Assembly (NCBI GenBank): GCA_049611965.1
Contig: JBMZBC010000002.1
Location: 28,473 to 92,472, forward strand
DNA length: 64,000 nucleotides
From: Schleiferiaceae bacterium
GTDB taxonomy: Bacteria; Bacteroidota; Bacteroidia; Flavobacteriales; Schleiferiaceae
Reading direction: 5' to 3'
Below the pieces are notes generated by a model. The model was not told the origin of the DNA. It did not search any database and saw only the letters and a list, made by a program, of their open reading frames with translations. The translations under genes and the position numbers were made by a program. Positions 47,422 to 48,113 of the stretch are shown here, one piece after another; the stretch's first letter is position 1, and every line of letters starts with the position of its first letter.

Positions 47422-48113
47422 ATGTCTAGAGAGAGAGAGAGAGAGAGAGAGAGAGAGAGCAGACAATTTCAATCAAACCTCACGAAGCTGAAGTCCTAAA
47501 AAATCTCGTTGAGAAGTATAATATCAAAATTGCACTAGAAATAGGTCTAGCCTACGGTGCAAGTTCTGTGGCCCTTCTCGAAGCAAGTAATACTCTAAAA
47601 CTTGTTAGCTGCGATCCCTTTCAAAAAGATGATTATAACGATAGCGGACTTAAGAAAATCAAAGCCGCAAATCTTCAAAATCGCCACACTCATTTAAATG
47701 CATTGTCAGATCGTGCATTACCAAAACTTCTTGAAGAAAAAGCGTCGTTTGACCTAATATTCATTGACGGAGACCACAAGTTCAGCGGTGCCTTCGTTGA
47801 CTTTCATTATGCAGCTCAATTAACTAAAGTTGGCGGTATAGTGGTATTCCACGATCTATGGATGCGAGCCCTTATTTTGATTCGTTCTTACATAAACAGG
47901 AACAGGAAAGACTTTGTGGAAATAAAAGTCGGTTCTTCGAATATGTGCGCCTTTAAAAGAGTTGATATAGACAGTCGAGATGGCATGGCGTTTAACGAAT
48001 TTTACAATCGCCAAGGATACTTGAAGTACCATATAAATCGTTTGTCGTGGGAAAGAAAAACAGTCTTAGGAAGATTGATATTCAAACTAAAAACGATTAT
48101 CAAAAAATTCTAA
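47422..48113 (+). CDS. class I SAM-dependent methyltransferase (Methyltransf_24/CmcI-like), out of frame with its ATG across the (AG)16 tract (phase-OFF allele or pseudogene)
   Basis: The enzyme frame is open from 47430 through the repeat and contains motif I (LEIGLAYGASS) upstream of the ORF-track GTG 47568. It also has a DGDH motif (LIFIDGDHKF) and VVFHD. The ATG at 47422 is in another frame that stops at 47497-47499. Confidence 0.7.
47428..47459 (+). repeat. uninterrupted dinucleotide microsatellite (AG)16
   Basis: Counted directly: 32 nt of alternating A/G, starting 6 nt after the first base of ATG 47422. Confidence 0.98.

Follow-up and report, generated by a model that had tools for sequence, protein, structure and literature searches.

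The textbook examples of simple sequence repeat (SSR) contingency loci come from host-restricted pathogens, among them Haemophilus, Neisseria, Campylobacter, Helicobacter, and Mycoplasma, and phase variation in the Bacteroidota is attributed to DNA inversions. The locus described here lies in a 64,000-nucleotide stretch of DNA from a Schleiferiaceae bacterium (GenBank assembly GCA_049611965.1, contig JBMZBC010000002.1, positions 28,473 to 92,472 of the forward strand; referred to below as the window), where a perfect (AG)16 tract lies at the start of a gene for a predicted O-methyltransferase. Comparison of this locus with its relatives makes it likely, with a probability that we put at roughly 0.8, that it is an SSR contingency locus at which slipped-strand events cause phase variation of the O-methyltransferase. 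The mechanism is classical; the host group and the ecology are new, and a full-text literature search retrieved no publication that describes an SSR switch for marine Flavobacteriales or Schleiferiaceae.

The outer-membrane-protein genes hopZ, oipA/hopH, sabA, and babB of Helicobacter pylori are switched by CT repeats at their 5′ ends. As in the window, a perfect dinucleotide tract lies within the first codons, slippage by one unit shifts the reading frame, and the alleles of different strains are in or out of frame. These genes, however, encode adhesins or porins in a host-restricted pathogen and have the tract in the signal-peptide region, whereas the window locus belongs to a free-living marine member of the Flavobacteriales and combines a cytoplasmic-type O-methyltransferase with a charged (Arg-Glu)n tail. 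Among the switched genes of Campylobacter jejuni are methyltransferases that act on the capsule, for example cj1426c. Two reports deal with phase-variable genes for capsule and lipooligosaccharide modification in this species (PMC8437040, PMC8355987), and these genes resemble the window locus in that an SSR lies within the coding sequence for an accessory modification enzyme and that mixed ON/OFF populations would result. The repeats concerned are poly-G/C homopolymers in genes inside glycan biosynthesis clusters, whereas the window locus has a dinucleotide tract in a stand-alone gene between housekeeping genes, and because of this isolated position a glycan target is not indicated.

The same repeat unit is found inside a methyltransferase coding region in Mycoplasma mycoides subsp. 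capri, whose type III mod gene is reported to have 12 consecutive AG repeats, leading to translational termination at a TAA (PMC3498834). The mod gene encodes the DNA N6-adenine methyltransferase belonging to a restriction-modification system, whereas the window enzyme is without a DNA-methyltransferase domain and finds its best matches among small-molecule or sugar O-methyltransferases. Within the phylum, phase variation by invertible promoters (invertons) leads to the outcome that is proposed here, a reversible ON/OFF heterogeneity of the population (PMC10028968, PMC3090145). Invertons change in orientation, whereas the window locus varies by tract length and is without promoter-flanking inverted repeats.

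Reading frames of the tract and its length in relatives

The features of the switch region in the window are as follows.

47422 to 47427, + strand: start codon ATG (47422 to 47424) and spacer codon TCT (Ser; 47425 to 47427), from sequence reading and translation
47428 to 47459, + strand: perfect (AG)16, hypermutable tract, (Arg-Glu)n when in frame, from Tandem Repeats Finder (TRF); 6 to 23 units in relatives
47427 to 47429, + strand: TAG, stop of the enzyme frame directly 5′ of the tract, from translation
47497 to 47499, + strand: TAA ending the 25-codon out-of-frame peptide of ATG 47422, from translation

TRF reported the tract with 100% matches as the sole dinucleotide array in the 64 kb, and a regular-expression census found a second-longest dinucleotide run of 4 units; the length of (AG)16 is far beyond chance. 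Translation from ATG 47422 gives MSRERERERERESRQFQSNLTKLKS, 25 codons in all, before the TAA. The enzyme frame is closed on its upstream side by the TAG, stays open from 47430 until its stop (48111 to 48113), and reads RERERERERE-QTISIKPHEAEVLKNLVEKYNIKIALEIGLAYGASS... across the repeat. According to the open reading frame (ORF) list, the earliest ATG, GTG, or TTG in this frame is GTG 47568, which lies just 3′ of the S-adenosylmethionine (SAM)-binding motif I. With 16 units the ATG and the enzyme body lie in different frames; with 15 units the ATG would open a 229-amino-acid protein. On these frames, the window allele is predicted to be OFF, and since the TAG closes the enzyme frame, no upstream start could rescue it. 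Unit numbers divisible by 3 would be ON in this allele, in which CAG follows the tract. Because tract ends differ among sister alleles, their ON numbers also differ, being 17 for (AG)n-AACAG and 10, 16, or 19 for (AG)n-A.

An earlier note on this DNA, made from the sequence alone, had described this anatomy (the ATG, the (AG)16, both frames, the TAG, the TAA, and GTG 47568), and on re-reading all of its checkable statements proved correct. It had also stated that the enzyme frame holds no ATG, GTG, or TTG between the TAG and GTG 47568, which the ORF list and the translation confirm. The 229-amino-acid fusion that it predicted for 15 units has a counterpart in a metagenome protein of that length (P0001; 95% identical), which starts MSREREREREREQTISIKP, exactly the predicted product. 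Its rule that unit numbers divisible by 3 are ON holds for the window allele, with other ON numbers applying in the sister alleles.

Under the proposed mechanism, slipped-strand mispairing at replication would gain or lose AG units, and each 2-nucleotide step would bring the body in line with the ATG or put it out of frame. When in frame, the product would be the whole enzyme preceded by Met-Ser-(Arg-Glu)n, the repeat serving as a disordered tail at its N terminus; when out of frame, as at 16 units, translation from the ATG would end after 25 codons. A product started at GTG 47568 would begin too late to include the N-terminal helix, strand beta-1, or the SAM-binding motif, and OFF alleles would presumably make no active enzyme. 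Populations of this marine Schleiferiaceae-type flavobacterium would then be mixtures of methylating and nonmethylating cells.

Relatives were collected by protein search with the enzyme body and by body scans of species-representative genomes and JGI metagenomes. This gave 22 distinct loci with a body nucleotide identity of at least 85%, and 20 further loci were fetched via two exact protein sequences. The relatives are uncultured marine Flavobacteriales, with metagenome-assembled genome (MAG) labels of Schleiferiaceae, Cryomorphaceae, or Bacteroidetes. An AG tract was present at the equivalent place in all 22 distinct loci and in the 20 further loci, and throughout the 22 it directly followed the ATG and one codon (TCT, ACT, or ACA). 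The tracts of the 22 loci had 6, 8, 10, 12, 14, 15, 16, 17, 18, 19, or 23 units, with interruptions in L003/L004 and L006, and the ATG was in frame with the body in 5 loci and out of frame in 17.

Three groups of loci had identical 648-nucleotide bodies in the distance matrix yet carried unlike tracts: L011 and L084 with 12 and 18 units; L085 and L086 with 15 and 14 units; and L089, L090, and L091 with 17 (OFF), 16 (ON), and 12 (OFF) units, respectively. Ten contigs encoding the exact truncated protein P0064 had tracts of 14, 15, 17, 14, 15, 15, 15, 15, 12, and 11 units. Six of these, which came from separate samples and had 14, 15, 17, 15, 12, and 11 units, showed 0 mismatches and 0 gaps in all compared flanks (up to 3.3 kb, composed of at most 1,300 nucleotides upstream and 2,000 nucleotides downstream; the ∼40 upstream nucleotides of L181 were left out, and the downstream flank of L180 was 1,158 nucleotides). 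The contigs with identical flanks stem from JGI samples 3300047373, 3300046744, 3300047377, 3300028135, and 3300047360 and from ENA sample ERZ23497251. The tract is the sole variable position found in the six P0064 strains and, judged from these alignments, evolves far faster than point substitution.

In-frame full-length proteins with differing (RE)n were found in three subclades: P0058 (227 amino acids), P0001 (229), P0091 (223), P0068 (229), P0066 (229), and P0067 (227). Their N termini were MS(RE)4Q and MS(RE)5Q, MS(RE)2R and MS(RE)5R, and MT(RE)4R and MT(RE)5R, the last of these (P0066) occurring on 36 contigs. Locus L001, with 15 units, encodes the 229-amino-acid full-length protein, and P0003 starts MTRERERERTISIKP. 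Several other close relatives were N-terminally truncated gene calls of 166 to 196 amino acids, and orthologues of 65 to 67% identity start MSAAAEKEHTISIKP, without a repeat. ON and OFF alleles were both present in subclades A, B, and C in this comparison. The slipped-strand frame switch proposed in the earlier note is thus backed by the orthologues, all close relatives having the tract with 6 to 23 units; where an invariant 16 units would have spoken against it, lengths vary on identical flanks.

The methyltransferase and selection on its body

Three features define the enzyme in the window.

47460 to 48113, + strand: methyltransferase body, QTISIKP to KKF, 217 codons plus stop, from Pfam, PDB search, AlphaFold2, Foldseek, and the ratio of nonsynonymous to synonymous substitution rates (dN/dS)
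47535 to 47564, + strand: SAM-binding motif I, LEIGLAYGAS; E27, G29, A31, and S35 invariant in 39 homologues
47766 to 47777, + strand: DGDH motif (D103-G104-D105-H106); D103, G104, and H106 invariant in the homologues; aligned to 8gxo

The body matched the Pfam families Methyltransf_24 (PF13578; E value, 2.1e−18; 67.6 bits against a cutoff of 26.3) and Methyltransf_3 (PF01596; E value, 2e−11; 44 bits against a cutoff of 22), and a search of NCBIfam with the methyltransferase matched no named family. Sequence searches of the PDB returned caffeoyl-CoA and other cation-dependent O-methyltransferases (best E value, 3e−7), with the alignment to the closest solved relative spanning query residues 3 to 140. 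Motif I, D52, D103-G104-x-H106, D114, and D132 were invariant in the 39 homologues, which agrees with the glycine-rich motif I and the acidic residue behind strand 2 of a Rossmann-type fold. The DGDH motif aligned with the metal-binding DAD of caffeoyl-CoA O-methyltransferases, and D103 and D132 aligned with the metal ligands (DAD, D(N)) of 8gxo, the third ligand being not clearly conserved.

AlphaFold2 predicted alternating beta/alpha elements with a mean pLDDT of 94.2, and two basic C-terminal helices (residues 184 to 216) that form a conserved extension in the model. The first modeled helix begins at residue 7, and because body residues 1 to 6 are predicted to be without regular structure, the (Arg-Glu)n stretch would extend freely from the N terminus, where a variable length would be tolerable. 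Foldseek aligned the model (probability, 1.00; TM score, 0.6 to 0.7) with O-methyltransferases of several kinds, including the caffeoyl-CoA, norbelladine, and bacterial catechol enzymes, and with the tRNA methyltransferase TrmR; the longest coverage was with the sugar O-methyltransferase MeT1 of Mycobacterium hassiacum. The solved cation-dependent enzymes (8gxo, 1sui caffeoyl-CoA O-methyltransferase; 6g80 MeT1; 5zw3 Bacillus subtilis TrmR) resemble the model in their Rossmann fold (TM score, 0.64 to 0.70), in motif I, and in acidic residues at the DxD and D positions, but they share only 16 to 25% identity with it, and the C-terminal extension of the window family lies outside the alignment to the closest of them. 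The enzyme is predicted to be a class I SAM-dependent O-methyltransferase of the Methyltransf_24/cation-dependent type. Its substrate would be some hydroxyl acceptor of a metal-dependent O-methyltransferase and is not transferable from the solved relatives.

No DNA-methyltransferase family was matched by the enzyme in Pfam or NCBIfam, and a PADLOC scan for defense systems gave no match. A phase-variable DNA methyltransferase (phasevarion Mod/HsdM) was rejected on these two results and on the neighboring genes, which are fumC, a gene for a 57-amino-acid membrane protein, and an ArsC-family gene. A defense or phage origin was also rejected; besides the PADLOC result, PHROGs gave generic methyltransferase matches only, with a partial match of the SAM-binding region to phrog_2675, and no relative of the methyltransferase was found among IMG/VR viral contigs. 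The preference of the earlier note for a Methyltransf_24-type enzyme over a DNA methyltransferase is therefore borne out by the profile search. Its suggestion of a surface glycan or lipid target gained no support from the neighborhood, the structural neighbors, or a Pfam census of the 108 nearest neighbors of 35 to 40% identical homologues in 60 genomes, in which no recurring partner was found. Glycosyltransferases made up only 2 of the 108, and the commonest families were those of SufS-type aminotransferase, RNase P protein, and NADH dehydrogenase. The context therefore neither supports nor refutes a surface glycan or lipid, which is one candidate of several.

Selection was assessed by the Nei-Gojobori method on 17 intact bodies, using the 113 pairs with a dS of >0.05. 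The median pairwise dN/dS of the methyltransferase was 0.096, with dS between subclades of up to ∼0.8, and in the subclade of the window (the window compared with L083, L009, L010, and L001) dN/dS was 0.06 to 0.10. Values for neighboring genes were 0.03 to 0.095 (ArsC family), 0 to 0.08 (57-amino-acid membrane protein), and 0.004 to 0.024 (fumC), so that the methyltransferase is similar to its ArsC-family neighbor. The body was intact in 19 of the 22 loci, with all 216 codons and the same stop. These substitution patterns indicate a body under purifying selection, and a decayed pseudogene, the outcome that the earlier note had set against its own reading, does not agree with a dN/dS of ∼0.10 and 19 intact bodies. 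The low dN/dS, the intact bodies, and the in-frame proteins in three subclades argue that the enzyme was kept functional while the tract existed, apparently with repeated losses and recoveries of the frame on identical backgrounds.

Alternative explanations

The locus combines a perfect 5′ repeat, a change of frame with unit number, a tract that is polymorphic on invariant flanks, ON and OFF states, and purifying selection, as would be expected of an SSR contingency locus. A number of results weigh against this explanation. An in-frame ATG in 5 of 22 loci is not distinguishable from the neutral expectation of one third (P = 0.21), and the ON fraction in a contig-weighted count among the cluster members listed was ∼1/5; the ON:OFF ratio is uninformative as a test of selection. 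High-rate switching inside clonal populations is deduced from differences between assemblies. PGAP at NCBI starts OFF alleles at ATT/ATC Ile codons of TISIKP, giving proteins of 213 to 215 amino acids (REJ61174.1 [P0055], PTL97765.1 [P0070], and MDA7721892.1 [P0071]), and in subclade B a GTG that lies in frame, five codons ahead of motif I, could yield a product of 196 amino acids (P0004, P0074). The alleles of three syntenic lineages of ∼60% identity, which carry ATG(AG)8 (L096), ATG(AG)7 (L182), and ATG(AG)9 (L183), are all OFF. In addition, three subclade-B loci carry lesions in the body. L088 has a TTA-to-TGA nonsense change at codon 28 in motif I (LEIG*AYGAS), L002 (P0009) has an in-frame deletion of 45 nucleotides or 15 amino acids (FVDFH...VVFH to FVDFH), and L008 (P0018, also P0085) has a C-terminal frameshift common to two contigs, which is possibly a long-read error. 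Given these lesions, some lineages may be losing the gene.

One alternative is that the tract is hypermutable but irrelevant, the enzyme being made constitutively from a noncanonical start (ATT 47466 or the Ile codon after it) or through reinitiation behind the short upstream ORF, with the tract drifting in a leader. We regard this as unlikely, even though an in-frame fraction of ∼1/5 to 1/3, indistinguishable from neutral, would fit a leader that is effectively untranslated, and strong purifying selection while most assembled alleles are OFF would fit as well, as would the Ile-codon starts called by PGAP (MSIKP... in P0055 and MKPHE... in P0071). Only the window and subclade B, however, have ATT at the codon concerned; most of the remaining OFF alleles (L082, L009, L010, L003, and L085 to L091) have ATC, and the tract-less L012 has ATA (ATT in L013/L014). 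Both ATC and ATA are very poor initiators. The ATG was kept at the same position in 22 of 22 tract loci, and in every lineage, despite a diverged leader, and tract-less orthologues start in frame at the equivalent ATG (MSAAAEKEH-TISIKP); ATG 47422 is thus probably the real start. The window allele, moreover, has no in-frame ATG, GTG, or TTG before motif I, and the tract has persisted over a dS of ∼0.8 and down to ∼60% protein identity, which we would not expect of a neutral microsatellite in a bacterial genome (compare PMC3315296).

That the gene is being lost, with the tract a mutational hotspot and OFF alleles early pseudogenes, seems still less probable. The 17 OFF loci out of 22 and the further lesions of L088, L002, and L008 would be in keeping with such a process, as would high dN/dS values within subclades (L085-L090, 0.47; L011-L007, 0.79), which stem from tiny counts. 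It would leave unexplained a dN/dS of ∼0.10 both across and within the subclade of the window, 19 of 22 bodies intact at 216 codons, and a tract kept over deep divergence, and the alternation of ON and OFF on identical bodies would require repeated restoration of the frame. Sequencing or assembly artifacts at a low-complexity tract are a highly improbable source of the length differences. Some contigs do end or turn chimeric there: positions 1 to 18 of L082 are (CT)9 at a contig end, the reverse complement of the tract; in L006 (923 to 1135), GC-rich sequence of unrelated kind is joined to the upstream side via (AG)9(CA)4(AG)6, and the gene call runs through the junction to give 280 amino acids; L089 starts 33 nucleotides before the ATG; and L008 may come from an error-prone long-read assembly. 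Tracts of 12 to 46 nucleotides are, however, spanned by ordinary short reads, the range of 6 to 23 units comes from projects and assemblers that are independent of one another (JGI, ENA, NCBI MAGs, and Logan), exact protein alleles recur (P0066 on 36 contigs and P0064 on 73), and the flanks contain zero indels.

Slipped-strand phase variation of the O-methyltransferase, the explanation that we favor, also has a bearing on annotation. Gene callers mask the OFF state, either by the ATT/ATC starts of PGAP or by a late start at GTG 47568 or its equivalent, which gives a protein of 181 amino acids without the SAM motif (P0064, for example).

Neighborhood, spread, and significance

The following features flank the switch in the window.

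47366 to 47397, no strand assigned: perfect bidirectional intrinsic terminator (A6-GCCCGAGC / GCTCGGGC-T6) with 14-nucleotide arms, 100% complementary, and a 4-nucleotide loop
47399 to 47405, + strand: TATTTTG, candidate Bacteroidota −7 element, 16 nucleotides upstream of the ATG with an A-rich leader between
48110 to 48457, − strand: convergent ArsC/Spx-family gene, a syntenic neighbor outside the switch, from the ORF list and synteny

The gene order is DUF389, fumC (− strand; 45611 to 47005), the 57-amino-acid membrane-protein gene (47172 to 47345), the methyltransferase, the ArsC-family gene (− strand), and a CHU_C protein gene (− strand), an order that the tract-bearing clade shares with the tract-less 67% orthologues and with L096. 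Since this syntenic slot is conserved, the methyltransferase is not a recent insertion. The stop of the methyltransferase gene overlaps the 3′ end of the ArsC/Spx-family gene by 4 nucleotides (48110 to 48113), and therefore no terminator lies between these convergent genes.

The terminator upstream was kept in the syntenic relatives compared; it is predicted to end the 57-amino-acid membrane-protein gene and to insulate the methyltransferase unit. TATTTTG is what we take to be a near match to the Bacteroidota −7 consensus TAnnTTTG and may serve as the promoter. The sequence (T/G)TATTTTG was kept in all tract-bearing loci, with the leader between it and the ATG varying by clade. An Rfam scan of 46900 to 48300 gave only subthreshold matches, driven by the terminator hairpin. 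A Bacteroidota invertible promoter was rejected for this locus. No inverton-type inverted repeats bracket the promoter, the sole strong inverted repeat being the terminator hairpin and the others short and imperfect, and strains differ in tract length rather than orientation. No recombinase-like ORF stood out in the ORF listing of 44 to 52 kb, in which ORFs were not domain scanned. Upstream of the tract in L085 (825 to 860), a 14-nucleotide tandem duplication (ATAAATACTATGAC twice) adds a second ATG, which is immediately followed by TAA.

A neighbor-joining tree, built without support values, places the tract-less L012/P0007 clade within a grade of tract-bearing lineages, which suggests one old gain of the tract and one loss, or else repeated gains. 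Among the tract alleles, only that of L003/L004 is broken by a point change, and under either history a long, near-uninterrupted microsatellite appears to have been kept far longer than we would expect under neutrality.

The G+C content was 0.376 in the body, 0.488 in fumC, and 0.456 in the whole window. Across the tract-bearing clades the body lay ∼9 G+C points under its flanks (0.37 to 0.40 versus 0.46 to 0.475), and in the tract-less clade the gene and its flanks were alike, at ∼0.41. Between the window and L011, dS was 0.49 for the methyltransferase, 0.88 for the ArsC-family gene, 1.3 for the 57-amino-acid membrane-protein gene, and >2 for fumC, and the amino acid identities of flanking genes were mosaic between clades (L009 to L011 and L083 to L088 compared). 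In L003 (2848 to 3605; L004 is identical), a cassette of 760 bp matching L011 (3932 to 4677) was found in an unrelated neighborhood of Cu-oxidase/Por_Secre_tail, ABC transporter, and peptidase S9 genes. It extends from 38 nucleotides upstream of the ATG, a segment that includes TATTTTG, to 26 nucleotides past the stop (the 3′ end of the ArsC-family gene). Its out-of-frame tract has an interruption, (AG)6-A-A-(AG)11. The low G+C content, a dS lower than that of the flanks, and this transplanted cassette suggest lateral movement, in the form of recombinational spread of a switch-bearing allele among related lineages.

The earlier note had called the gene AT rich relative to fumC, as the measured values (0.376 versus 0.488) confirm, and had placed it between a strong terminator and a convergent gene, which are the terminator with its 14-bp stem and the ArsC-family gene. 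Its view of the locus as a single-gene islet holds in part: the low G+C content, the low dS, and the L003/L004 cassette speak for it, and the conserved syntenic slot, common to tract-less orthologues, speaks against it.

A switch present in every close relative found, and in many independent marine metagenomes, would show stochastic ON/OFF heterogeneity in free-living bacterioplankton. ON/OFF ratios are countable per read in public metagenomes and could be compared over seasons, depths, and phage loads. A more speculative reading, which we hold tentatively and think rather doubtful as a whole, joins these strands into an ancient bet-hedging switch of abundant marine Flavobacteriales. If it were true, the AG tract would have been kept mutable across family-level divergence by second-order selection, the ∼760-bp promoter-tract-gene unit would spread between lineages by recombination, the ON/OFF state would decide on the O-methylation of a cell component to which phages or grazers have access, and ON/OFF ratios in ocean metagenomes would be a direct record of fluctuating selection.

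Repeats of other kinds were seen in the wider family. In L100 (2960 to 2990), a marine contig of ∼3× coverage with a 48% homologue, the ATG is out of frame and (AT)6 lies between it and the body; one AT unit fewer would restore MEARNDIYIPAGKESISVK. The run mostly mirrors Tyr-Ile-Tyr-Ile codons, and at this low coverage the shift may be a simple error. The (AT)5-6 runs of L037, L100, and L116 were considered as recurrent SSRs and rejected, being explained by a conserved Tyr-Ile-Tyr coding motif. A 39% identical homologue in the Bacteroidales MAG JAOZUW010000004.1 (L068, 3843 to 3862 and 3996 to 4015) carries an in-frame tetranucleotide repeat, (AACC)5; a dedicated protein search for close relatives of L068, made to judge the variability of the repeat, found none. 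This (AACC)5 encodes NQPTNQP in a loop before the conserved DPFQ, and a scaffold gap (N run) is bracketed by the same repeat.

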